DNA of 63,731 nucleotides, the filler included, from Malassezia furfur (lineage: Eukaryota), in NCBI GenBank assembly GCA_052055015.1. It is 4 parts of 4 records of this genome, joined end to end, with 100 filler letters (N's around TTAATTAATTAA, not from the genome) between each part and the next. Parts side by side here need not be neighbours in the genome. Positions count along the whole stretch, not along the records: positions 47,962 to 63,731 come from JBQJIT010000260.1; 3 more parts are not named here. The stretch is one strand, 5' to 3'. The notes under the pieces are model-generated. The model searched no databases. It was not told the DNA's origin and saw only the letters and a list, made by a program, of their open reading frames with translations. The first letter of the stretch is position 1; every line of letters starts with the position of its first letter. A program made the position numbers and the translations under genes. Below are positions 15,895 to 63,373 of the stretch, one piece after another.

Positions 15895-15994
15895 NNNNNN
15901 NNNNNNNNNNNNNNNNNNNNNNNNNNNNNNNNNNNNNNTTAATTAATTAANNNNNNNNNNNNNNNNNNNNNNNNNNNNNNNNNNNNNNNNNNNN
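15895..15994. other. Artificial contig linker
   Basis: N-run-TTAATTAATTAA-N-run (stops in all six frames). Confidence 0.97.
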
Positions 15995-31882: not shown

Positions 31883-31982
31883 NNNNNNNNNNNNNNNNNN
31901 NNNNNNNNNNNNNNNNNNNNNNNNNNTTAATTAATTAANNNNNNNNNNNNNNNNNNNNNNNNNNNNNNNNNNNNNNNNNNNN
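31883..31982. other. Artificial contig linker
   Basis: N-run-TTAATTAATTAA-N-run. Confidence 0.97.
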
Positions 31983-47861: not shown

Positions 47862-47961
47862 NNNNNNNNNNNNNNNNNNNNNNNNNNNNNNNNNNNNNNN
47901 NNNNNTTAATTAATTAANNNNNNNNNNNNNNNNNNNNNNNNNNNNNNNNNNNNNNNNNNNN
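47862..47961. other. Artificial contig linker
   Basis: N-run-TTAATTAATTAA-N-run. Confidence 0.97.
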
Positions 47962-48610
47962 GCAGCTCGCGCCGCCGGTCGGGGTCCATCGCGACCAGCT
48001 GCTCAAGCCGCGTCGGCGCGCCCGTATGCGCGCCGGCCTCAAGCGAGAGCGCCTCGAGGCGCCACGCGTCGGGCGGCGTATACACCACCACACACGTACG
48101 GCACACGGCGCTCACCGGCGCCGCGAGATGCACCCTGCGTCAGCACAACACGTACCATGCGAGTGTGGGGCCGGGGCGCATGTGCAAATCCACGTCGCGC
48201 GCGCGGCGTACGCGAGCGGGCGCCGCTGCGCAGGTGCCGACGCACCGCAGGCCCGGCAAGGCGCGCGTTGCGTCGCGGGGGCGTACGCCGGCGACCACGA
48301 CCACGACCTCGCCGGGGCCGCCGTCCATGCACCACCCATGCACCTCGGCGGACTCGGCGGGCACCAGCGTCGACGGCCAGTACACCTGCACGCACACGAC
48401 GCCGTCCGCGGCCGGCGAAGCGCACAGGCGCCGCGGGGGGGTCGGGCGCGGCGAAGCGCGGGCGGCCACCTCGGTCTCGGCGGCCGCGGCAAACTGCGTG
48501 TCCAGTGCGACGCGGCGCTCCGCGAGGTGCTGCGCGCCGACGTACACGGCGCCCGCGAGCGCCGCGGCCACCGCACACGCACCCCACGCACCCGCACGTT
48601 CTTCGTGCAT
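47962..48610 (-). CDS. 5' part of a gene truncated at contig start, possibly Gpi1/PIG-Q-like (intron 48135-48155, 21 nt)
   Basis: VQVYWPS...VHGW...VVVVVAGV resembles the Gpi1 N-terminus; intron GTACGT..CTGAC..CAG removes an in-frame stop. Confidence 0.4.
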
Positions 48611-48875: not shown

Positions 48876-49286
48876 CTACGCATCGCCCTTCGCACCGGCC
48901 TGGGCGTCGCCCTCCTCGGCCTCGGTATCAATCAGGCCGAGACGCGGGCCGGCAAGCCCGCCCTTCTTCGCGGCCTCGCGCGCCTTGCGCGACTCTTCGG
49001 CCTGGCGCTTGATCGCGTGCTCTTGGATGGTATGCGCACGCGCAAGCTGCGTCAGACACACACACGCACCTCCTTCGTATGGTGCAGACACTCAAGGTAG
49101 TCGTCCTTCTGCGGCATGCACTCGCCCGCCGACTCGGCGGTCACGTAGCATTTCCGGAAATCCTGCCAGAACGAGAAGCAGCGCGAGGGGCCTGCGTCAG
49201 CACACACGCCACGCACCTCCGTTGAATCCAAAACCAGACTGTCGCAAGTGTTAGCCTCTGTATGCGCGCGCGCGACGTACCGCCAT
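48876..49286 (-). CDS. NADH:ubiquinone oxidoreductase 15-kDa subunit (NDUFS5/NIPM); introns 49239-49280, 49192-49216, 49047-49069
   Basis: Spliced MA/SGFGFNG/GPSRCFSFWQDFRKCY...ECMPQKDDYLECLHHTKE/LAR: twin CX9C motif. Confidence 0.88.
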
Positions 49287-49515
49287 CGTACACCAATGCC
49301 GGTTGTCGGGAGAGGCGCGACGGCCGAAGAGTCACGTGATACGTAGGCGGCGGGGGGGGCGGCGGACGGCGGACGGCGGCGCACGCGGCAGGTATCGGTG
49401 GTGGGCTATGTCTACGAAGAAGAGCAAGATATAGACAGATAAAAAAAAAACAACACAAAAAACATCACAAAGGCGCATATAGGTCGTCATAGTGTACAAC
49501 GCCTCGAACACATCA

Positions 49516-50460
49516 TCAGAAAACGAGCGGCTGCCGCTTTTCCTCCCATCGCTTATCGTCTGGCGTCAGCGGCGCAACGTACAGTCACTCAAAAACGCGG
49601 TGGCCACCAAAATCACACGCTCAATCAGCGAGGGGGCGCGTGCGTCCGACGAGAGGCGCACGGGGTCCTTGTTCTCGAACTGCAGCTTGACGGGCGGGCC
49701 GGCGGGGTCGGCGCCGTCCTCACACGGCACCTGCACGACGGACGTGTCGTAGTCGCGGTCAAAGCACACCACGACCGGATGCAGCTTGCTCGTGGGGTCG
49801 CGCGCCCAGCGCTTCGAGAAGTTTTCGATCGAGCACACCGTCCGGCGCCGCGCGCCCGTCACGGTGAGCTTGCGCCACGGCCCCTCGGCGGTGGCGAACG
49901 GACGGAACTCGTTCGTGCGGCGGTACGCAGGCGTCCCGTCAAAGAGCAGGTATTTTTGGTGCTGCGAGGTGTGCAGCACAGTGCGGATGCCGCCGACGAT
50001 GCGCTGCGGCGGCGCCTCGCCGGGCTGCTCGCTGACAAAGATCTCCACGTCCTCGTACACGCGGCAGTTGCGGCGGCTGATGCGCAGCACCCGCTCGCCG
50101 TCGGGGCCGTACACGATCATCTGCAGCTTGGGCGGCTCGTTCCACTTGCGTTTGGTGCGCAGTGGATCGCACCGGATCTCACCGACCTGGACGCAGTCGG
50201 GTGTGTAGATCTTCACGACGGACTCGAGGATGCCGGCTCCGCTGCGGTGAGTGGCGTGCGACGTACAAGCGTGTGGCCTTCCGTGTCAGCAGCACGGCGG
50301 GGTGCAGGAACATGCGCTGCAGCACCGTTGTGACCTCGATGTTGACCACGTCGGCATACGGGGGCAGCTCGCTGCCGGGGGAGGCAGGGGGCGGTGGCTC
50401 GAGGTCCAGAAGCGCACAGTGCGCCGCGAAGGCCGCGTGCGGAGCGCCAAGCTCTGCCAT
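49516..50460 (-). CDS. Scramblase/Aim25-like array gene A (introns 50242-50266, 49560-49582)
   Basis: FLHPAVLLTRK, IYTPD.VQVGEI, GERVLRISR, IVGGI, FRPFATAE, SLIERVILVATAFLSD/Y. Confidence 0.7.
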
Positions 50461-50552
50461 CCTGATACGGTGGCGCAATCAGGGACGTGGGGCCCCCTGG
50501 GTTTAAGGCCCGCGCTGCCAAGGGGGTCCGTGCATACATTACATAATCTCTA

Positions 50553-51527
50553 TCATCGGCGGATGACCACGTCGGGGTCAAAGCCGGCCAAGACCGCGTG
50601 CAGCGCATGCGCGCCGGCGCGCCCGACGTGCGCAAGCGACAGGGCGTGCTTGGGCTCTGTGGGGCGCGTCTTAATCAGGCCGTCGTCTGGGTGAGTAGCG
50701 CGCAACGTACAGATTCCGAGACACGCCGTAATGACCAGAATCGCCCGCTCCGTCACCGACAGGGGCGTCGCGTTCTCGTCGAGCGGAATCGGGTGCTGGT
50801 TCTCGAGCTGGAGCTTCTCGCACCCGGGGTGCTTGGACTCGTCAAAGTACCGCGGCACAAGGAACCGCGACGTGTCGTGCTTATGGTCAAACGTCGCGAG
50901 CACCACGTCCGAGTCCGGGAACACCTTGTTCGTCCAGCTCCGCGTAAAGTTCTGCACCGAGCCCAGAATCACACTCCGGGGGTTGTACACGGGCAGCCGC
51001 GGCCACACGCCGTTCACCACGGCGAACGGCGTAAACTCCGACACCCGTGTCGCATGCGCGCCGTTGTATAGCGTATACTTCACGTGCTTGCCCGTGTCCG
51101 TCTCGCGCACCACCCCAAAGAAGCCCTGCAGCTTGTCCTCGGTGCAATAGCTGCTCGCATACAGGCGCGAGTCGTTGCGGCCCGCATGCGTCTCGCGGTC
51201 CAACGACAGCCGCGGCGTGCCGTGCCGGTCGTAGAGCGCCAGGCGCAGGTTCACCCGCTTCTCATCGGTGCACGCGGTCCACAGGCCGTCCAGCACAATG
51301 TCCGCCACCTTGGTGCCGTCCGTGGTGAGCAGGTGCATATTGATCTTGGCGACGCTCGGCGATCTGCGGTCAGCTCCCCAACGCCCCACGTACGCTGGCT
51401 CGGCACGCCAGGTGATCACCAGCGCCGGGTGCCCAAAAATGTCGTCCAACGACACACATTCACGCTGCTTGCCGGTATCCATGTACGGTGGCGGCGCCTC
51501 CTCGGACACAGAGCTCTGCGCGCTCAT
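50553..51527 (-). CDS. Scramblase/Aim25-like array gene B (in-frame introns 51364-51393, 50687-50710)
   Basis: IFGHPALVITWR, LLTTDGTKVADI, FTPFAVV, LSVTERAILVITACLG; closest to gene A. Confidence 0.7.
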   Translation of the reverse strand: MSAQSSVSEEAPPPYMDTGKQRECVSLDDIFGHPALVITWRAEPAYVGRWGADRRSPSVAKINMHLLTTDGTKVADIVLDGLWTACTDEKRVNLRLALYDRHGTPRLSLDRETHAGRNDSRLYASSYCTEDKLQGFFGVVRETDTGKHVKYTLYNGAHATRVSEFTPFAVVNGVWPRLPVYNPRSVILGSVQNFTRSWTNKVFPDSDVVLATFDHKHDTSRFLVPRYFDESKHPGCEKLQLENQHPIPLDENATPLSVTERAILVITACLGICTLRATHPDDGLIKTRPTEPKHALSLAHVGRAGAHALHAVLAGFDPDVVIRR

Positions 51528-51804
51528 CGCGGCTGCGTCTACACTCCTGCACGGGAAATTTTCTCTTCACGTGGTACGAAATGGTCAGGCGTGGGGTCGC
51601 ATCATGCTGCTCGCTTGTCGCCTATTCGCCCGCTGGTTGGTCACTGACGGAGAGATGCACCTCCTCATTAACTACAGCCAATCCGACACCCGCGCCCGAC
51701 GCACGCCGCGTGACCCGCAGCCGATACGACTAATTATTTACAAATTCCCTCCTCCACAATCGCCTGCGTCGTGCGTGCGTCATGCCATGCGTGCGCCTCG
51801 CACG

Positions 51805-52716
51805 CTACCAGCCCAGCAGGCCGGCGGTGAGGAACACGGCGCGGCTTTGGTCCATCTCGCTCGGCAGGCAAAGCAGCGTCGCGCGGTCCACTGGCGTCAG
51901 CGGCCCGAACTCACCTTCAATCAAAAACTGCGCAGCCAGCACGAACGCGCGCAGCTCCTCGCCGGCCGGCAGTGTACGCTGGACGGGCGTGCCGTGCACC
52001 TTGTCCGCCGGCACCCCGTGGAAGTCGAACGTGGCATCCTTGCGCGACTTGATCGGGAGCTGCAGTGCGCGCACCGTCGTCAGATCGGCATAGTACAGCA
52101 CATAGGGCGTCGGCGGCGACGACAGCTTGCGCTGCATCCATCTGTGTCAGCAATGCGTACGCACGAGTAGTACTTGTACATGTTTTCCGCACCGGCGATC
52201 ACCTCTCCCGCCGCATTCTTGAACACGTATTGGTCCTCGGACGAGCGCACTTCGGCAGACACAAACGGCTGCGACGCACAGCTCGGGCCGCCGCGGTCGT
52301 CGTACACCTCGTACAGCCGCCGGCCTTGCCCGAGCTGCATCGTGACGCGCGCAAGCACCTCGTCGGTGCCGGGTTTGCAGATACACGAGTCGCTGTGCCG
52401 CAAACCGCCGCTCCGCCGGATCTCGAGCAGCGGCTCATCGTTCGCGTCCACAAGCGTGTAGTCGAAACGGGTAAACTCCCCCGTCTGAGCATCTCGGACG
52501 ACCCCCTTCGCCGTGATGGCCCCGGCACGATGGCCTTGGGGCGTGGTGAGCACGTAGGGCATCTTGGTGCTGCGTCAGTCGTCTCGGCCCCACGTACCAT
52601 TCCCGCACATGCAGCCGCGTCACGAGTAGCACCTGCTCTTCGAGGAGCGTATCGGATTTAGGAAGCTCTTTCAGGTCCACGTCCACCAGAGTCTCAATGC
52701 TGCTAGTCTCGCTCAT
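51805..52716 (-). CDS. Scramblase/Aim25-like array gene C (introns 52570-52597, 52142-52164, 51891-51914)
   Basis: LLEEQVLLVTR, YVLTTPQGHRAGAI, LVDANDEPLLEIRR, QPFVSAEV, FKNAAGEVIA, LRAFVLAAQFLIE. Confidence 0.72.
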
Positions 52717-52862
52717 CGTAGGTACACGGAGAGTGTGGGGTACCGCCCTACTCGCTGCACGTGTGCCTGATTGCGCGGCACGGCTAGGGTCCGACACCGA
52801 GTATACGCACAGACCACCTTATTTGATAAAACCCCGCACGGCATGCCAAGACTCCCCTCGCC

Positions 52863-53798
52863 ATGATGCAAGCAGCACAGCAGGCGCCGCACGCAGCAGG
52901 CACCGGGGGGCCACGCGACGCATACGAGGCCTTTGTGCCGTACGCCCAGCTCGTCTTATCCGGAGTCCCCCAGGGCATGTAGGTGGCCAGCTCACACAGA
53001 ACCTCGTCCAAACTCGACGCGACGCTGCTCATCAGCACGCTGCAGGGCCAAAAAGTCGGCACGATAGGTAACGGCCGGAAGGCAGGGAGCAAGCGTCTGT
53101 TCAGGCAGCGCCCGTGGGAGTTTGATTTCCTGGACGCCCACGACGAGCCGCGCTTCCGTCTGCGCCGTCTGCCGGGCAGCAAAAAAACCACCGCCGAGGT
53201 GTACGAGCGCGGCGACGCACCGGGCGACGCCAACTGGCGCAAGATGGGGCAGATTGCGGTGGATGGGACGGATCCGTGGGATTTCGAGTACCGCGTCTCG
53301 TACACGCTCTTCGAAGTCGAAACGGACGGCCTCTGCCGCGAACCATTCGCTCGTACCGTCTCGCATCCTCTGACCGACCAGTTTTGCTTCCAGCACAACA
53401 ACCAGCTCGTGGCATCTCAGCAGGAAATCCCGCTGTAGTGCGTAGTTTTGCCGCTGACCACAGCGAAATGGGGTACGACGGCAAGGCCGTCAACTACCTA
53501 CTCTGGACCCAGGCACTGCCGCACCCCGGCCCCGTCGTGCTTCCTGTCGCGTATGACAAGGGCGTACCAAAGATGGACACCATCGTACTAGATCACGACA
53601 TCATTCCTTTTGTGGATCCCAATGCGCCCGGCGCAACGGCGCGGCAGCGGATCCTGTACTTGGCTACATCTTATCTGATATACTGTGCGTTCCTGCGCCG
53701 CTGACCCAGTCGACCAAGAGTGCGAAGAGCGCGTATCGCAGTACCGTGAGGGGCTTGGATTTGGGCCACTTAATTGTGTCGGCTATGCAGTGACGTAG
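52863..53798 (+). CDS. Scramblase/Aim25-like array gene D (introns 52979-52999, 53438-53463, 53685-53709)
   Basis: LISTLQGQKVGTIGNG, LFRQRPWEFDFLDAHDEPRFRLRR, MGQI, EPFART, TARQRILYLATSYLIY/FD. Confidence 0.72.
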
Positions 53799-54026
53799 GC
53801 GCGAGGATCTTATAAAAATTAGGCTCATTTAGCGAGTGCAATGGCTCGGCGGCGAGGTTTCTTGCCGGCGTGCGTATCTGCCCACTGCGGCATCTTTTGC
53901 AAACGCATGCTCCTGCTCAATTACTATGGTCCTTCCTACACCGGCACAGCGCAGTGCGCCATGTACGGTGGGCAAATACGCAAGCGCCTTCGCCTCTGCA
54001 GAAGTGCGTCGCTCATGCGTACGTGC

Positions 54027-54938
54027 CTACATCCCTGCGATCGCTGAGACCGCAAACACCGCACGGCCCTGGTCCATCTCGTTCGGCTGGCACAGCACAC
54101 CTTCGCGATCGACTCGCATAAGCCATCAAGACGTACCTTCGATCAGGAACTGCGCAATCAGCACAAATGCACGCTGCTCGTCGCCAGCTGGCAGCGTGTG
54201 CTGGACGGGCGTGCCATGCACCTTGCTCGCGCGCACCTCGTGGAAGTTGAGCGTGGTATCCTTGCGCGACTTGATTGGGAGCTGCAGCGCCGGCACCGCC
54301 GACGGATCGGCATAGTACAGCATGTATGGCTTTGGTAGCGACGACAGTTTGCGCTGCATCCACCTGGGTAAGCAGCACACGTACGTGTAGTATTGGTGCA
54401 TGTTTTCTGCGCCGGCAATCACCTCGCCCGCCGCATTCTTAAACACGTAGTGCTCCTCCGAGGAACGCACTTCGGCAGACGCAAACGGTTTCGACACTCC
54501 ACCCTGAGCGCCGCGGTTGTCGTAGACGTCGTACTGACGGCGGCCGCGCGTGAAATGCATCGTGATGCGCGCCAGCGGCTCACGGCTGCCAGGCGCACAG
54601 ATGCCTGTGTCGCTCTGGCGCAAATCGCCGGTTCGGTGCACCTCGAACAGTGGCTGATCGTTCGCGCCCAAGAGCGTGTAGTTGAAACCCGTGACGCGCT
54701 TTGTCTCTGGATCCTGCACAATCCCATTCGGGGAGATCATGCCGGCGCGATGGCCCTGCGGCGTGGTGAGCAGGTAGGGCAGCTTGGAGCTGCGTCAGGC
54801 TCGTGCGTACCTTCCCCGTAAACGCAGGCGCGTCACGAGCAAAACGGGCTCCTCGAGGAGCGTGCCCGATTTTGCTAGCTCTTTGAGGTCGACATCCACC
54901 AGGGTCGCAGCCGTCGCAATGCTGCTTGTGTCGCTCAT
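54027..54938 (-). CDS. Scramblase/Aim25-like array gene E (introns 54790-54810, 54364-54384, 54113-54136)
   Basis: Close paralog of C: LLEEPVLLVTR, YLLTTPQGHRAG, KPFASAEVRSS, QRAFVLIAQFLIE. Confidence 0.72.
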
Positions 54939-55417
54939 CGACGTAAGTTGATGTGGGGAGGGCCTTCTTAATTCTAGTCCGGTCCACGTGTGATTTAAGG
55001 TTGTCGGACGGAAGCTTGACACCTTGTGCGGCGCACAGACCATCTTGGCGATCCACCGTTCGCACCATGCAGACCGCGGAGAACTTGGGAAAGAGGCAAT
55101 CCAGCCTCACTCGGCATCGGCGTGGTAGATGCTAGTGTATAGTGCGTAATAGCCATGTTCTCATCGCGATCGCATCATGCTGTGTAGGCGAAATTTCCTC
55201 ACTGCGGTGGGATGATCAGGCTTGGCAAGGAAACCTGGCACGTTGCATGGCCTATTCGCCGGTTGTGACCTTCCAAACAGATGCATATTTTTGTTAATTA
55301 GCCACGACTAATCTTATAAAAGTACAAACGCAGTATGCAACAGCACACAAACACTACACACATTCCGATGTGCTGATCGCCCCGCGGAACTGCAACGCTC
55401 GGTGTGCGTGGGCTAAT

Positions 55418-56330
55418 TCAATTCAGCACCGGTATATACGTTACCCGATTTTGGAACACATTGGATGACACGCGCACAACAGCCTCGCGCTCAACTTGCA
55501 TAAGCTGCATAAACGTACTTTCGATCAGGAATTGCGCAATCAGCACAAACATGCGCCGGTCGTCGCCGGCCAGCAGCGGGTGTTGGATGGGCGTGGCGCG
55601 CACCTTGTCTCCGTGCACCTCGTGAAAAAGAACCGAGTCATTCTTGCGTGCCTTGATTGGGAGCTGTACTGCAGAGACCGTCGAGGGGTCCTCGAAATAC
55701 AGCAAAAGGGGCTTGGGCGGCGACGACAGTCGGTGTTGCATCCACCTGCGTGAGCGGCATCCACGTACGAATAGTACCTGCGCATGTTTCTGACTCCGAC
55801 CATCACTTCCTTCGCGGCGTTCTTATATTCGTATTTTTCCATAAACGCGCGCACCTCGGTAGAAGAAAACGGTTTGGGCACATCGCCCTGCGACTCGCGA
55901 TCGTCGTACACGTCGTATCGGTGCCAATTGTGCGCAAACTGCATCATGACGCGCGCAATCGGCACACTACTGCTCGGCGCACAGATGGTCGTCTTGCTTT
56001 GGCGCAAGTTACCGCACCGGTGCACGTTGAACAACGGCTGATCGTTTGCGTCCAGGACCGTGTAGTAAGAATGCGTGACGCGCGAAAGTTCTGGGTCCTG
56101 GACGATTCCGTTGGCGATGATCACGCCAGCGTAATGGCCTTGTGGGGTGGTGATCAGGCAGGGCAGTTCGAAACTGTGTCAATCGCATTCGGCCGTACGT
56201 ACCTTCCCCGCACGAAGAACCGCGTCAGGAGCAAAACAGGCTCTTCGAGGAGCGTGCCAGATTTTGTCAGCTCATGAAGATCCACATCCACCAGCGTTGT
56301 GGCCGTCGCGATGCTGCTGATCTCGCTCAT
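55418..56330 (-). CDS. Scramblase/Aim25-like array gene F (introns 56174-56202, 55746-55768, ~55495-55518)
   Basis: Close paralog of C/E: LLEEPVLLLTR, LITTPQGHYAG, VLDANDQPLFNVHR, RRMFVLIAQFLIE. Confidence 0.72.
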
Positions 56331-56480
56331 CGTCGTCACGCTGCTGTGGGGAAGGCAATTCTACTCTGCTCCGGACCACGTGTCGAATCCGCGCAGCTGG
56401 AATAAGCTCCGACGCGGTGTACGGTGCGCACAGACCACCTCAGCGATAAATAGCGCACCGCGCGCCAGGGGCCCCGCCCC

Positions 56481-57365
56481 ATGCCGTCTCGCACCGCTGA
56501 TACGAGCGATGCGTACGAGGCCATTGCGCCGCACGCACACCTAGTCCTCTGCCGGGTCCCCCAGGGCATGTACGTGGGCTGCTGACACAGCATCTCGTCC
56601 AAACTCGATGCGACACTTGTCATCCGCACGCTGCAAGGCGAGAAAGTCGGCGTGATTGGCAACGGGCACAAGGCGGGGAGCCTGCATTTGTTTAAGCAGC
56701 GCGCATGGGACTTTGACATTATGGACGCGCACGACGAGCCGCGCTTCCGTGTGCGCCGTCTGCCTGGCCAACTCGACACCACCGCCGAGGTCTACGAGCG
56801 CGGCGACGCAACGGACGATGCCAACTGGCGCAAGATGGGGCAGATTGCGATCAAAGAGACGTATGAAAAGAGTTTGCGGCACCTCGCGCACGCGCTCTAC
56901 GAGGTGCAGGAGAACGGTCTCTGCGATAAGTCGTTTGCGAGAGTCGGAAACCATCCGCGGCAGCGCGCGTTCCGCTACTGGCACAACAAGCAGGCCGTGG
57001 CGCATCTACAAGAGATCGTGCTGCCGTACGTAGACCGCGGCTGACCACAGCAATTTCGGGTACCAAAGCCAGGAGATCAACTACTTCCTGTGGATGCAGG
57101 CAGGGCCACATCCTGGGCCTCTTCCGCTCCCCGTCAAGTACCACCAGGGCGAGGCGGAGATGGATATCATCAACGTGCCCGACAAATTCATCCCCGAGTT
57201 GGATCCGAGTGTGCCCGGCGCCACGGCGCGGCAGCGCATCCTGTACCTGGCCTCGGCGTTTCTGATCTTCTGTGCGTGGCTGCTAGCCTGCTGACTCCAG
57301 TCGAGCAAGAGCGCGACGAGCGCCAGACCACGTACCGCGAGGGCACTGTGCGTCCCAACTACTGA
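56481..57365 (+). CDS. Scramblase/Aim25-like array gene G (introns 56570-56590, 57026-57050, 57272-57300)
   Basis: Close paralog of D: IRTLQGEKVGVIGNG, LFKQRAWDFDIMDAHDEPRFRVRR, TARQRILYLASAFLIF/FE. Confidence 0.72.
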
Positions 57366-57563
57366 GACGGTGGCCCCCAAATGCCCGCGTGGTGCTCTGC
57401 GTCTCCCTCCATAGGCCCACACGCGCGGGGCACGCGCCGGTGGCCGGCGTGGCCGCCTGGGGAAAGCCATTGGGCGCCGGACCTGCACGAACCTCCACCG
57501 GCGCCCCCCCGCAGATTTGGGCTGACCGAATGCATCTAATATCTTGGCTTGACGCCGACTCCC

Positions 57564-58524
57564 ATGTCCGATACGACTCCGGTCGAAAAGCGGTCCGACA
57601 CCGGGTCCGTGGTGTACTCCGAGGCGATCGGCGCCGACGACCCGCTGCTGCGGGAGTCGCATGTCGTCCTTACCGAAATCCCACAGGGCTTGTAGGTCTC
57701 TCCTCACTTACCCTAGCACCGCGACACTGCTCGATACCACGCTCCTCCTGAGCACCGTGCAGGGCGAAAAGCTCGGGTCCATCGGCAACGGGCGCAAGGC
57801 CGGTGCGTTCCACCTGTTCAAGCAACGCCCGCTCGAGTTTGATATTATGGACGCCCAAGGCCGCCCGCTCTTTCGGATCCGCCGTGTGCCCAACGAGCGG
57901 CACACCGACGCACTGGTGTACGAGCGGCGCAACGGACCCAACGGCGCCGCATGGCACCAGATCGGCCAGATCCTTGTCCGATCGCGCAGCCCCCGCGGCT
58001 TTGGCTACGAGGTGTCGTATACGCTGTACGAAATCCACGCCGACGGGCACTACTACGAGCCGTTTGCGACGATCGAGTCGAATCCCTTTACGCACAAGTT
58101 CCGGTTCCTGCAGGACGCCCGCGTCGTCGCGAATATGCAGCAGGTGGACTGGTCGTACGTGCGCATGGCTGACGACAGCGACCTTGGTCTCAAAAAATCC
58201 AAGCTGGCCAACTACCTGTTCTGGCTGCAGTCTGGCGCAGCGCCTGATACGGTGCAGCTCGCGACCAAGTGCAAGCAGGGACGCCCCGTTACGACGGCCG
58301 TGCAGCTGCCGCCGAACTGTATACCCAATGTCGATCCGTCGGCTCCGCACCCCTCGACGAACCAGCGCGTGCTCTATCTGGCCGCCGCCTACCTTGTTGT
58401 CTGTGCGTATCCCCCTCCCTCGATGGCTCACACAGACGACCAAAAACTCGACGAGCGGCTGTCGAACAACCAGTCGAGTGCGCTAATCGCCTCGAGCGGA
58501 TCGGTCGCCGTATCCACCCTGTAA
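57564..58524 (+). CDS. Scramblase/Aim25-like array gene H (introns 57692-57716, 58155-58178, 58403-58435)
   Basis: LSTVQGEKLGSIGNG, LFKQRPLEFDIMDAQGRPLFRIRR, IGQI, EPFATIESNPFT.KFRF, NQRVLYLAAAYLVV/YD. Confidence 0.75.
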
Positions 58525-58780
58525 TGTGCGCATCTATACACGCAGCTTTATGTATCTAGTCTATGCGAGGAAGCAGCTGACCGCGCACGCGGCGCTGCAC
58601 AGGCACCACACGCGCCGCGACGGTGCGCCGCGCCGTGCGGGCGCTCGCCAGTGCGCAGCACCGCGCGCGCACTTATCGTGCGCCGCTTGATAAGCGCCGC
58701 GTGTCGTGCACGTGCCATCGCTGAAACTATATCCCCACAGAATTCTCGCGCGCGGTGTGTCGTCTGACGTTGTGCCTTGA

Positions 58781-59713
58781 ATGCCGGGCACGATGCCTGC
58801 TGCGACGCGCCCTGCGGGCGCGTCTGCCGCCCCGCCGGACGTCTCTGAGGCGGCCAAGCGCATGCTGAGCGACACCGATTTGGTGTTGTCCGAGATTCCG
58901 CTCGATTTGTACGTCGCCATGCACTCACGCAGCCAAGCGTCGCAGCCCGTGCCATCGCTGCTGATCACCACGCTGCAGGGCGAGCGCCTCGGGACGATCG
59001 GGAACGGGCACAAGTCGTCGCAGTTCCAGCTGTTCAAGCAGCGTCCGTGGGAGTTTGACGTGCTGGACAGCGACGACCAGCCGCTCTTCCAGATCCGCCG
59101 GCTGTCCGCTGGGCGTTTCGCGAGCGCCGACGTGTACGAGCGCCGCAACAAGGAGTGGCACAAGATCGGCCGCATTGCCGTCGAGGGGCCCAATGCGCGG
59201 CGCGAGACCACCGACGCGACGTACGCGGTGCTCGAGAAGCGGGCCGACGGCCAGGCGGAGGTGCCGCTCGCAATCGCGCGGCGCGCACACAAGAACCGGT
59301 TCCTCTTCCACCAGAACGACATGGTGGTCGCCGGTGTGCAGGAGATCGACAAGGCGTACGTCGCACGCGCTGACCCAGCCGCTATGGCTTCCCGAACCAC
59401 ACGACCAACTACGTGGTGTCGCTGCAGAGCTCGGCGGCGCCCAAGTTTATCGAGGTGCCCGTCACCTACAAGGGAGGCCACGCGGTAACGAACTCGATCA
59501 CCTTCCCGTCAGAGCTTGCGCCGGTCGTCGACCGTGGTGCGCCAACCTCGAGCACGCGGCAGCGCCTGCTCATCCTCGCCGGCTCCTTCCTGATTTACTG
59601 TATGTGCCTTGGCTCACGCGCCAGTCGACTATTACGACGCCGACCGCCCCTCGAGTCCGCGCGTGCGCCGCGGGAGTATGGGCGAGCATTCCTCGATCCT
59701 CGTCTCGAATTAG
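58781..59713 (+). CDS. Scramblase/Aim25-like array gene I (introns 58909-58932, 59356-59378, 59600-59624)
   Basis: ITTLQGERLGTIGNG, LFKQRPWEFDVLDSDDQPLFQIRR, IGRI, TRQRLLILAGSFLIY/FDY. Confidence 0.72.
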
Positions 59714-60814
59714 TGACGGCGGCGTGCGCAGTGCCTGGCGCACGTGCCTACGAGACGAGGCACCACGTCGGGCCTGCCATGTACCTCCCTGCGGATGCTC
59801 CGATGCGCTGCGCGTCGGGCCCTTATTGTAATTCTTTTGATAAACGGCTCCTTCGAGTCGTGCACGTGCCACCACAGAAATGCCCAGCCTCGCATGGGAC
59901 GTCCGCGGCTTTCGTGCGTATTGCACGCGGTCGAGTGCGGCGGCTTCCGCTGTCTATGCCCTATGCCGTGCGCGTCAGCCTGGTGCGGACGCTGCGCGCG
60001 CCGGAGCGGTTGCGCATGCCTTGCACGAGGCCGACCTGATTCGTTCCTTCGTTCCTTCTCGGCTTGTACGCAGAGCCAGCTCGACACTGCGGGGTTATTG
60101 CCCCATGCTCCTTCTCACGTTGCTGCAGGCAAAAAAGAGGAGCGCGGTCAGAGATGATCATAGAATCCCCTAAAAGAAGCTGAGAAGCCGCTTGATGCGG
60201 CGTTGCATGCCCTGAACTCGTACGACCGCCGGGTGCTCCCGATTCGCCGCGTTCGGCTCTGCGCTAGACCGCTACCAAAATGTGCGAGCGGTCCGATGTA
60301 AATGGCACTGGCCGCGCATGCTCAAGGGCGGCGCATGCGCTTGTCGTCCTTGCGGCCCTCCGCCGCAGCTCTGCGGCCCGGTCTTTTGAGGAGGATGCGC
60401 CTCTACGTAGTGTCATTCCGAACCGCATTCCCGCGCACGTCGATCGAGGCCCGTGCGCTACGAGTTCAACAAGGCGGCGATACTCTCTCTCGGTCGTTCC
60501 CACTGAGCTCGCACGTCGGGGATCCTCGTGCGCCGCGGCTGCCCTGCATCGGTGCCTCGTTGGTGCACGCGCCGGCGAAGTATGCGGGTCCGGCGCGGCC
60601 ACGGGCGCGCGCGCGGCATGGGAGACGCGGCGCCGTACGATACGCGCACGCGCTGTGCCGGCGGAATTTTGCGCGGTGCTTGCGGAATTTTGCTCGCGCC
60701 GGGCGTGGGGGGAAAAAGGTAGAGCAACGCTATGGAGAGCACGTAGCGTCGCCGTACCGCGGTGGGTATCCTATCGACTGCAGCGCCGAGGCGATGGGAG
60801 GCGTGTGCGGCCGC

Positions 60815-61545
60815 CTAGGTATACGTGACGTCTGGGTGAGTGCGCATCCACGTACAGTCGAGCACGAACGCAAGGGCGAGGGTGACGATGCGCTGGTCCA
60901 TGCTTTCTTCGCCGCACTCGATCTTGAAGCGGTGGAAGTCGACGGAGCGGTTGGTCCTCATGCTGTATGAGTGGCGGCGAGGACGTACGCAAACGGCATG
61001 CTCTGGATCGACGCGAGCTTGTTCTTGTGGTCGTCGACGATGTGCAGATTCGTGCCGGCGGCCTTGACGGTGAGCCGCCCAAACGGCTCCGAGGCGCCGG
61101 TCGGCCCGGCACAGAACACGTTGTACTTGGAGCGGAAGGAGAACAGGTCGGCCTTGATCTCGCCGACCATGCGCACGGGCACGGCGCCGGTGCTGACGCC
61201 GTTCTTGGTGGAGCTGCCGTAGCCGAGGATGCGGACGAACCCCTGGCTGCCGCCGTGGCGCAGGTCGAACTTGGCGAGCGGCAGGCCGTCGGCGCTCAGC
61301 ACGTCTGCATACATGTGCGCGCGCCCGCGGTGCACAATGGTGCCGATGCGCCTGTCGTCCGGTGCGGTGATGGCATATTCGATGCCCTGCAGCTCCGACT
61401 GCCACAGCGACTGCTTAAAGTCGCGCGAGAGGAACACGGACGGCTGCCCCAGCACGGTGTACAGCGAGCGCTGTGTGTGTGGGTCGGTGCGCGGAAGCAG
61501 CGCGAGCGTCGCCTCGGACGCCAGCGAGCCGGCGTCGCTGCCCAT
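60815..61545 (-). CDS. Scramblase/Aim25/LOR-like array gene J, most divergent (introns 60963-60988, ~60832-60855)
   Basis: VLGQPSVFLSR, EYAITAPDDRRIGTI, VGEIKADLFSFRSKYNVF, EPFG, KLASI, SMDQRIVTLALAFVLD/Y. Confidence 0.68.
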
Positions 61546-61638: not shown

Positions 61639-62670
61639 CTACTGGGTCTGCGAGGAGGCCAGGTCGCACTGGCGCCCCAGCTCCTGCACGTTCTGCAGTG
61701 CGGTCTGGAGCGTCGCGTACGACGGCGTATCGGGGCTGGTATTTTTGAGCAGGTCGCGCAGCAGGAGGCAGTAGCGCGGGATGCGCTGCGTCGGCATGAT
61801 CGCCACGTCCACCGGGCTCAGCTCCTTGGGCGGCTTGCGCTTGTCCGCGCGGCGGTCCGCCGCGACGTCCAGCGCGGCGTCCGGCAGCTCGGAGTCGTCG
61901 CGTGCGCCACTGCGCCGCGGCCCGGCGGGCGCGTCGGCACGCAGCGGGTCGAGCACCGGGACAAGCCCGAGGCGCCCCTTGGACTTGCTCTTGCTCGCCT
62001 CGGTGGCGCGCAGCGCACGCAGCGTCGCGCCCACGACGCCGCTCCACGCGACGTGCACCTCTTCGAGCTGGTCGCGGATCACAAGGAAGGCATGCGCCAC
62101 GCCGACGCTCGACGGGCTCTCTTCGATGCGGTACACGAGCGCGCGGCTGATCGAGATGAGCTGCGGGAGCATCTTGCGCAGCGTCAGGAGGTGCGGCGGC
62201 GGCGCATTGCTCGGCAGCCGCACGGACGCCGGCGCCGGCTGCTGCTGCTGCGACGGCATCAGCACGTTCGTCTGCATGCGCGTCGACGTGCTCGTCGTGC
62301 CCGCCCACTTGAGCACGACGATCAGCAGGCTCTCGAGGTGGCGCGCGTAGCTCCGCTCGGTCTGCACGAGCTCGCGGATGAGGAAGAGCGCCTTGACCTC
62401 CTTCTTCCAGTCGGCGTCGTTCGTGAACGGCTTGCCCGGCGCGTTGCCCGTCGCGTGCCCGATGCCGAGCTCGTTCGCGATGCTCTCGTCGATGCTCGCC
62501 TCGTCGTCGCTCGCGCCGTCGCTCGCGCCGTCCGCGGCCGCGTCGTCGTCCCCCTCCTCCTCCGCCGCGTCGTCTTCGCCGGCGTCGCGTACGTCGGCGT
62601 CTGCCGCGGCGTCGAGCGCCGCGCCGAGCCAGGCGAACTCGAGCTCGGTCGAGTACCCGTCGGTGACCAT
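61639..62670 (-). CDS. RhoGEF (Dbl-homology) domain protein; 5' end uncertain
   Basis: LFLIRELVQTERSYARHLESL and AIMPTQRIPRYCLLLRDLLKNT are DH-domain conserved regions; nearest in-frame ATG upstream of the domain is at 62670. Confidence 0.75.
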   Translation of the reverse strand: MVTDGYSTELEFAWLGAALDAAADADVRDAGEDDAAEEEGDDDAAADGASDGASDDEASIDESIANELGIGHATGNAPGKPFTNDADWKKEVKALFLIRELVQTERSYARHLESLLIVVLKWAGTTSTSTRMQTNVLMPSQQQQPAPASVRLPSNAPPPHLLTLRKMLPQLISISRALVYRIEESPSSVGVAHAFLVIRDQLEEVHVAWSGVVGATLRALRATEASKSKSKGRLGLVPVLDPLRADAPAGPRRSGARDDSELPDAALDVAADRRADKRKPPKELSPVDVAIMPTQRIPRYCLLLRDLLKNTSPDTPSYATLQTALQNVQELGRQCDLASSQTQ

Positions 62671-63373
62671 CCCTGTGGCGTACTCGACGTCGGTCGCGTA
62701 CAATGTGATGAGTGCGCCGTCGTCGATCGCGACGCCGAACGCGACGGCGTCGTCGAACGTGACGTATGCGGCGGCCAAGTCGACCGCGACGTGGAGCGGC
62801 GCCCTGCCGACGCTCATCAGCCTCATGTACCGCGGGAGCGACGAGGCCAAGGCGCACCTGCCGACGTTCTACTGGACGCTCGCGAACGCGTCGCTGGAGT
62901 CGTCGCAGCTCGACCTGATCTGCCAGACGCAGACGCACTTTTGTGCGACGGCCGGCTGCGAGGACGGCGACGACCACGTCGAGCACAACTTCTGCGACAC
63001 GAGCAAGGGCATGGCGACGATGTGCACGTGTGCCAAGAGCAAGTCGCGCCTGCCGCAGTACCAGTGGCCGGTGCAGTCGCAGGACTGCCTGCTCCGCCTG
63101 CAGGCGTGCCGCGACGCGTGCAACAACCAGAAGGAGACGCCGTTCGCGCAGCGGAACGTGTGCACGCAGGCGTGCGCCGACCAGATTGGGAGCAGCTGCG
63201 GCAAGACGGAGCAGTACGGCGCGAACTACGCCGTGTCGAAGCCCGGGCAGACGCCGTCGTACCTGATCGTCGACCAGTCGGACGCCCAGGGCGCCGGCGC
63301 ACGCACCGCCGCCAACCTCGCGCTCGTCAGCGCCGTGTCGCTCGCGGCGGCCGCGTGGCTCGTCCGCGCGTAG
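62462..63373 (+). CDS. Ser/Thr-rich, Cys-rich extracellular GPI-anchored-type protein; 5' end uncertain
   Basis: ICQTQTHFCATAGC...NFCDT..MCTCAK...DCLLRLQACRDAC...CTQACADQIGSSCG; N-glycosylation sequons; hydrophobic C-terminus LALVSAVSLAAAAWLVRA*. Confidence 0.7.
   Translation: MPSSFAMLSSMLASSSLAPSLAPSAAASSSPSSSAASSSPASRTSASAAASSAAPSQANSSSVEYPSVTIPVAYSTSVAYNVMSAPSSIATPNATASSNVTYAAAKSTATWSGALPTLISLMYRGSDEAKAHLPTFYWTLANASLESSQLDLICQTQTHFCATAGCEDGDDHVEHNFCDTSKGMATMCTCAKSKSRLPQYQWPVQSQDCLLRLQACRDACNNQKETPFAQRNVCTQACADQIGSSCGKTEQYGANYAVSKPGQTPSYLIVDQSDAQGAGARTAANLALVSAVSLAAAAWLVRA

Follow-up and report, generated by a model that had tools for sequence, protein, structure and literature searches.

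Gene Content of the Array

The window analyzed here is a stretch of 63,731 nucleotides (nt) from Malassezia furfur (NCBI GenBank assembly GCA_052055015.1), which joins four parts end to end, the last of them, from position 47,962 onward, being taken from record JBQJIT010000260.1. Between positions 49516 and 61545 of this window lie ten intact genes, A to J, which become apparent after removal of 27 GT-AG introns of 21–33 nt and which encode proteins of 226–306 amino acids (aa). These genes are interpreted below as one family and, very probably, as divergent members of the superfamily of barrel proteins that includes the scramblases, the LOR proteins and Tubby. The gene models were built from stop-to-stop open reading frames (ORFs), which are abundant in this region (GC content 0.57–0.68), combined with a scan for short GT-AG introns possessing a fungal donor and a branch site, and three splice sites that were missed by the scan were placed by inspection. 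An original prediction, made from the sequence alone, had described ten genes that appear once introns of 21–33 nt are taken out, and nearly every detail of that description proved correct. The ten genes are as follows.

50460..49516, minus strand: gene A, 298 aa; introns at 50242–50266 (25 nt, phase 2) and 49560–49582 (23 nt, phase 1); N-terminal LPPY
51527..50553, minus strand: gene B, 306 aa; introns at 51364–51393 (30 nt, phase 2) and 50687–50710 (24 nt, phase 1); N-terminal PPPY
52716..51805, minus strand: gene C, 278 aa; introns at 52570–52597, 52142–52164 and 51891–51914 (28, 23 and 24 nt; phases 2, 2 and 1)
52863..53798, plus strand: gene D, 287 aa; introns at 52979–52999, 53438–53463 and 53685–53709 (21, 26 and 25 nt; phases 2, 2 and 1)
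54938..54027, minus strand: gene E, 281 aa; introns at 54790–54810, 54364–54384 and 54113–54136 (21, 21 and 24 nt; phases 2, 2 and 1)
56330..55418, minus strand: gene F, 278 aa; introns at 56174–56202, 55746–55768 and 55495–55518 (29, 23 and 24 nt; phases 2, 2 and 1)
56481..57365, plus strand: gene G, 269 aa; introns at 56570–56590, 57026–57050 and 57272–57300 (21, 25 and 29 nt; phases 2, 2 and 1)
57564..58524, plus strand: gene H, 292 aa; introns at 57692–57716, 58155–58178 and 58403–58435 (25, 24 and 33 nt; phases 2, 2 and 1)
58781..59713, plus strand: gene I, 286 aa; introns at 58909–58932, 59356–59378 and 59600–59624 (24, 23 and 25 nt; phases 2, 2 and 1)
61545..60815, minus strand: gene J, 226 aa; introns at 60963–60988 (26 nt, phase 2) and 60832–60855 (24 nt, phase 1); the most conserved member

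The genes lie on both strands in mixed order (A, B and C minus, D plus, E and F minus, G, H and I plus, J minus) and are separated by intergenic gaps of 92–479 base pairs (bp), plus a single gap of 1101 bp between I and J. The GC content at third codon positions (GC3) is 0.71–0.92 for A to J in the chosen frames. For gene E the start was taken to be MSDTSS; an upstream ATG, at 55043, would lengthen the protein to 316 aa. The spacer between the convergent genes I and J (59714–60814) was considered as an eleventh or decayed copy and rejected, as it contains neither a match to the family by hidden Markov model (HMM) nor an ORF with GC3 > 0.75. Nor was an eleventh copy found elsewhere in the window at E < 0.1 with an HMM built from the ten models.

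Introns and Support for the Gene Models

The introns begin with GTACGT, GTGCGT, GTGAGT, GTAGGT or GTATGT and carry a branch site of the CTGAC, CTCAC, CTTAC or CTTAT type near the acceptor, which is pyrimidine-AG in 25 of the 27, the exceptions being the last introns of E (GAG) and F (AAG). Across the genes the phases follow the order 2, (2), 1. The last intron is in phase 1 and occupies one alignment column (303), directly behind the C-terminal helix, in ten of ten genes, just as had been claimed for it. Ahead of the first core strand there is a phase-2 intron in nine of the ten (column 67 or 71), J being without it, and a mid-gene phase-2 intron at columns 225–227 is found in seven (C to I). 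The phase-2 intron of J falls at column 257, a place where the alignment is uncertain.

Public M. furfur gene models that are 88–97% identical to F, G, H, I and J allow some of these junctions to be compared with annotations made elsewhere. Both junctions of J are identical in the public model P0062 (226 aa, 96% identity), and all three of G are reproduced by the public models P0068 and P0069 taken together. Two introns each are shared by H with P0057 (introns 1 and 2), by I with P0006 (introns 1 and 3) and by F with P0007 (introns 1 and 3), while intron 3 of H and every junction of A to E were placed from splice signals and paralogue conservation only. The public models (P0007, P0068/P0069, P0043/P0057 and P0006) conflict with one another and with the conservation seen among the paralogues: those of H keep in-frame introns, one of G runs through the last intron to a stop, and a longer piece is excised in F (26 residues) and in I (19 residues). 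Where the public models differ (H, F and I), the gene models presented here follow the paralogue alignment.

One Family of Four Subfamilies

Sequence identity is 31% for A/B, 50–67% for C/E/F and 33–59% for D/G/H/I, with C/E (67%) and D/G (59%) as the closest pairs, and is weak between subfamilies by BLAST, for which the E-values between copies refer to a database of ten sequences. A maximum-likelihood tree of the ten models and eleven Malassezia homologues contains four clades with support of 98/93, 100/100, 100/99 and 100/100, and within it C, E and F cluster together (87/84), separate from their relatives in other species. Both BLAST and the tree bear out the four subfamilies put forward in the original prediction (A/B, C/E/F, D/G/H/I and J), and the common series of ordered motifs that it described is visible in the family alignments, where it reads LVLTR-like; TxQG..G.I; DA..PLF.I.R; Y.LY; PFA; QR..LA..FL.

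At the level of profiles, hhalign relates copies C to I (the C-I profile) to A/B through 196 collinear columns, with a probability of 93% (E 3e-7), and to J through 113 columns, with a probability of 71% (E 3.7e-5). Because of these profile links, the tree and the shared intron positions, common descent of the ten genes is the only reasonable reading, with J the least securely attached.

Superfamily Placement

A protein of another Malassezia species, MSPP1_002145 (304 aa; P0017 hereafter), provides the bridge between the array and the scramblases. It matches Pfam Scramblase with 80.4 bits (cut-off 25.4) over model positions 13–216 of 221, and the C-I profile likewise picks it up, at E 3.6e-9, the match running from position 10 to 223. 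Two further homologues score 24.7 bits (P0019) and 17.3 bits (P0021) against the same Pfam model and cut-off. In hhalign comparisons, P0017 aligns with C-I at 98% probability (E 1.4e-13, 209 columns), with A/B at 83% (E 8.8e-6, 198 columns) and with J at 59% (E 9.5e-5, 126 columns), the last being a weak link. There is, then, profile-level homology to an undisputed Scramblase member over the whole domain, weakly so for J. A language-model search placed exon 1 of J (0.90, rank 1) and the core of B (0.90, rank 4) near fungal LOR/Tubby-like clusters, results which are treated as leads only, and a match to AIM2 in a profile search of PDB sequences (E 1.1) was set aside as chance.

The direct check that had been proposed for this kinship, a search in the manner of HMMER against Pfam Scramblase (PF03803), LOR (PF04525) and Tub (PF01167), went the other way: no copy matches, and none of 14 ORF pieces gave a match to these three families at E ≤ 1. 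By this curated test the copies are not members of Pfam Scramblase. The kinship with scramblase and tubby proteins that had been predicted is therefore one that emerges by remote methods only, namely through the profile links to P0017 and through the structural matches of H.

For the latter, the core of H (57718–58401) was folded with AlphaFold from a 14-row alignment. The resulting model (predicted local distance difference test, pLDDT, 79; predicted template modelling score, pTM, 0.79) comprises 13 strands together with a helix at the C-terminal end (residues 214–227); a helix at residues 145–152 is an artefact, as the query read through an in-frame 24-nt intron. When H was compared with 48,161 chains by an exhaustive structural aligner, only two reached Z ≥ 8. 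The first is At5g01750, a LOR protein (PDB 1zxu/2q4m; Z 10.7, root-mean-square deviation (rmsd) 3.0, 133 of 162 target residues, model residues 5–228, 11% identity), and the second is the Tubby C-terminal domain (1i7e_A; Z 8.9, rmsd 4.0, 144 residues aligned). Lower-ranked matches, at Z ≤ 7.7, are in the range of the common background. The structural template published for the scramblases is At5g01750, in which 12 strands form a barrel round a buried C-terminal helix (PMC2639001), and the model of H shows such a barrel, in the fold of At5g01750 and of Tubby. For A/B and J, the fold is suggested by the profiles.

Conservation within the D/G/H/I subfamily follows the modelled structure, mean pairwise identity being higher in the helix (0.62) than in the strands (0.46) and higher in the strands than in the loops (0.36). 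That the helix is the most conserved element and the loops the least fits a buried helix and variable surfaces. Sequence and structure independently indicate one superfamily, and it is very likely that all ten copies belong to the scramblase/LOR/Tubby superfamily.

Distribution and Annotation

Against 1.84 billion representative proteins, the C-I profile gave 20 matches at E ≤ 1e-3, of which three (P0018, P0023 and P0024) are bacterial Ig-repeat or low-complexity proteins. The named matches are hypothetical proteins of M. furfur, M. obtusa, M. psittaci, M. vespertilionis and Malassezia sp. CBS 17886; among the homologues in general, all 14 named proteins are Malassezia proteins. Word-based homologue searches returned two matches for H, three for J and, for P0017, only the protein itself, and no relative turned up when metagenomes were scanned with P0021 and P0004. 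On the evidence of the databases, the family is restricted to Malassezia, and the sequences indicate a tandem expansion in M. furfur. For each of three homologues, P0012 (H-like), P0013 (C-like) and P0019 (scramblase-like), the cluster includes a member on a contig of 60,163 bp, which hints at a clustered arrangement of the family in a further Malassezia species.

The public M. furfur models that correspond to F, G, H, I and J carry consecutive locus tags (CBS14141_004370 to _004374) under which they are called hypothetical proteins, and corresponding tags exist in two further assemblies (CBS9595_002900 and _002902; GLX27_004238 and _004241). Orthologues of J are 86–89% identical, and the one from M. 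brasiliensis is entered in UniRef as ‘Phospholipid scramblase’. The claim that the genes are invisible to naive ORF calling is only half right: the large exons show up as plain ORFs, and public assemblies of M. furfur annotate consecutive hypothetical proteins here. An equally large array already annotated across related fungi had been named as something that would tell against the original prediction; such an array is indeed annotated within M. furfur, whereas none was seen in other fungi, in which the copies per species were not counted.

The genes themselves are therefore not new, and what is new is their recognition as one family and the placement of that family. No published description of the family or of the array was found in the literature on Malassezia gene families, on scramblase or tubby proteins in Malassezia, on tandem clusters in M. 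furfur and on fungal LURP-one proteins. The words ‘scramblase’ and ‘tubby’ are absent from the main texts of PMC4634964 and PMC13448219, although S3 Table of PMC4634964, which deals with Malassezia-specific clusters, could include the genes. Genome comparisons that depend on Pfam or on clustering at E ≤ 1e-5 would split or miss this family, the copies of which are filed as hypothetical proteins.

Protein Properties and Selection

No membrane-spanning segment is seen in the ten proteins, in which no 19-residue hydropathy window reaches 1.6 (maximum 1.56) and no N-terminal hydrophobic stretch occurs, and no signal peptide is seen either, which agrees with the earlier remark that signal peptides are not obvious. 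By eye, no mitochondrial presequence is evident in the acidic N-termini. The isoelectric points (pI) range from 5.5 to 9.1 and are below 7 in four of the ten proteins. C, E and F possess one or two single Cys residues after an ‘RR/HR’ turn, at a place that we take to correspond to the palmitoylation motif of PLSCR1. Motifs of the PPxY type occur only in the A/B branch, as LPPY in A (residues 32–35) and PPPY in B (residues 12–15), and are possible sites for WW domains (Rsp5-type ligase).

The ratio of nonsynonymous to synonymous divergence (dN/dS) between paralogues is 0.29–0.78 in nine pairs, a rough estimate given that dS, at 0.7–1.2, is near saturation and that GC3 is extreme. The ratio is below 1 in all nine, and these values point to constraint, though looser than usual. 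The description of the family as rapidly diversifying is borne out only in the sense of high divergence; the paralogue dN/dS stays below 1.

Sequences Flanking the Array

Directly beyond J, a gene with a RhoGEF (DH) domain occupies window positions 61639–62868 on the minus strand, within an ORF extending to about 63403. The domain matches the end of the Pfam model (PF00621, E 5e-18), and the gene could serve as a synteny anchor in other Malassezia. Beside the 3′ end of gene A there is a small ORF (49052–49405, minus strand) with paired Cys motifs (CFSFW...C, C...C), which by eye resembles a small mitochondrial protein of the CHCH type; Pfam gave no match for it at E ≤ 0.01. Paired 44-base runs of N are present at 15895–15994, 31883–31982 and 47862–47961, spaced by approximately 16 kilobases (kb), and the last pair lies 1.5 kb upstream of the array.

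Proposed Explanation and Its Alternatives

The explanation that we favor, with a probability of roughly 0.75 for the whole, is that this compact array of ten intact paralogues constitutes a Malassezia-restricted and very divergent branch of the scramblase (PF03803)/LOR/Tubby barrels. Each protein would start with a short and variable tail of ∼30–65 residues (in A and B it carries a PPxY-type motif), continue with a barrel of ∼12–13 strands and close with a conserved hydrophobic C-terminal helix, buried within that barrel, and a brief, variable end piece encoded behind the shared phase-1 intron. What the proteins do is a more tentative matter. By analogy with PLSCR and Tubby proteins, a possible role is that of soluble cytosolic proteins which dock on membranes or on partner proteins via the barrel surface and loops. 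They would then organize or sense membrane lipids, as opposed to carrying lipid in a cavity, and duplication in the M. furfur lineage may have spread the copies over different surface specificities. A lipid-transfer protein of the cavity type was set aside as the main reading, since barrels of this fold are occupied by their central helix, which makes a lipid-carrying cavity unlikely (PMC2639001). The suggestion of a lipid-acquisition or host-interaction system is, for its part, not supported, the helix-filled barrel again arguing against such a cavity.

A number of results weigh against the favored explanation. The Pfam Scramblase, LOR and Tub families remained unmatched even at E ≤ 10 in searches of four core regions and of four homologues, among them orthologues of J at full length, and the family profiles matched no solved structure among PDB sequences. 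Within the family, J is weakly linked to the rest (71% probability to C-I, 59% to P0017), and its hhalign comparison with A/B is not significant. Foldseek recovered no PDB match to H at E ≤ 1e-3, and TULP1 came only at rank 21 (E 0.17, template modelling (TM) score 0.25). Structure prediction, which had been put forward as a check, did return a strand-rich barrel with a C-terminal helix for H, but the model of A, from a two-row alignment, has a pLDDT of 43, so that the fold has been demonstrated for H only. The Cys-rich palmitoylation (CC) motif of PLSCR1 is absent from ten of ten proteins, I being without any Cys, and the roughness of the dN/dS estimates belongs on the same side.

PLSCR1 is interferon-induced in animals, and LURP1/LOR proteins act in plant defence. 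By analogy, the array might be a family driven by conflict, diversified for defence against intracellular parasites (e.g., double-stranded RNA mycoviruses) or for contact with the host; its barrels would have diversified by tandem duplication to recognize or block different intruders at membranes, as a fungal counterpart of PLSCR1 and LURP1/LOR defence. We regard this as unlikely, although several observations would suit it. The tandem copies are strongly divergent, with 31–67% identity within subfamilies, and rates are uneven between the same two M. furfur lineages, H being 74% and J 89% identical between the source DNA and M. furfur CBS9595, while the position of C/E/F apart from relatives in other species (87/84) suggests recent lineage-specific duplication. 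PLSCR1 is reported to be an antiviral factor (PMC10371867), plant defence is reported to require LOR genes (PMC8624885), and a mycovirus of Malassezia has been described (PMC7468201). The analogy, however, is drawn from other kingdoms, all nine paralogue pairs have dN/dS below 1, and the ten proteins lack a signal peptide or other secretion signal.

Less likely again is the possibility that the proteins are regulators released from membranes, which would be held at the membrane and then move to the nucleus to control transcription as DNA-binding proteins, a model put forward for PLSCR1 and Tubby. The superfamily as a whole has been proposed to consist of membrane-tethered transcription factors (PMC2639001), and in the alignments most copies retain the basic residue of the ‘F.I.R’ strand-turn motif. 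The N-terminal tails, however, are of 30–65 residues, against 100–250 disordered residues in the superfamily (PMC2639001), and there is no Cys-rich anchor motif; a nuclear localization signal was not seen, though none was searched for, and the pI, at 5.5–9.1, is below 7 in four of ten proteins. It is highly improbable that most copies are redundant duplicates drifting to pseudogenes with only one or two, such as J, still functional, for despite dN/dS values of up to 0.59–0.78 (H/I, D/I and A/B) and a very high divergence between subfamilies, all ten frames are intact, 27 of 27 introns are canonical, in-frame GC3 is 0.71–0.92, orthologues of F, G, H, I and J are retained in other M. furfur assemblies, and the core helix and strands are better conserved than the loops.

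If the array is, as we favor, a divergent branch of the scramblase/LOR/Tubby barrels, the tenfold expansion of a family that is single-copy in baker’s yeast would be a concrete candidate for membrane biology specific to Malassezia. Malassezia depends on host lipids and is dominant in the skin mycobiome. The mechanism of scramblase, LOR and Tubby proteins is disputed, and ten natural, soluble-looking variants in a genetically tractable yeast would provide useful material for its study.

Comparison With Known Systems

Of the known systems, the Scramblase family (PF03803; human PLSCR1-5 and yeast Aim25/Slm35) resembles the array proteins in that these are collinear over the whole domain with P0017, and in the order of the elements, from an ‘LVLTR’-type N-terminal segment through strand hairpins with a conserved basic residue to a hydrophobic C-terminal helix ending in FL(I/V)(D/E/Y). 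A further likeness is the PPxY in the N-terminal tails of A and B, as PLSCR1 also has PPxY motifs. PLSCR1 possesses, in addition, a Ca-binding EF-hand-like motif (D273–D284) ahead of its C-terminal helix. The array copies differ from this family in falling below the Pfam threshold, in being without the Cys-rich palmitoylation motif, in the shortness of the N-terminal tail and in belonging to a branch known only from Malassezia. They also differ in number, with ten tandem copies against one in Saccharomyces cerevisiae, where Slm35/Aim25, which is mitochondrial and stress-related, is the only such protein according to PMC5270667; the low copy number that had been stated for such proteins in fungi fits with this as far as yeast is concerned.

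The LOR/DUF567 proteins (PF04525) are similar in fold, At5g01750 being the best structural match of the H model, but there is no PF04525 match in the array, and the bridging homologue P0017 matches Scramblase and not LOR. Much the same can be said of Tubby (PF01167; 1i7e), the second-best structural match of H, which has the same barrel-around-helix fold, but which shows no sequence match to the array and has longer insertions between its strands (PMC2639001).

Data on such proteins in fungi bear on the array only indirectly. Among basidiomycete yeasts, a scramblase-family protein has been described in Cryptococcus gattii, in which deletion of Aim25 (CNBG_3981) is reported to disorganize membranes and alter extracellular vesicles (PMC6429041). 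The C. gattii protein is reported there as one named gene, in contrast to an array of ten. Set beside these systems, the M. furfur array would represent an unusual tandem expansion of a highly divergent branch within a known superfamily.

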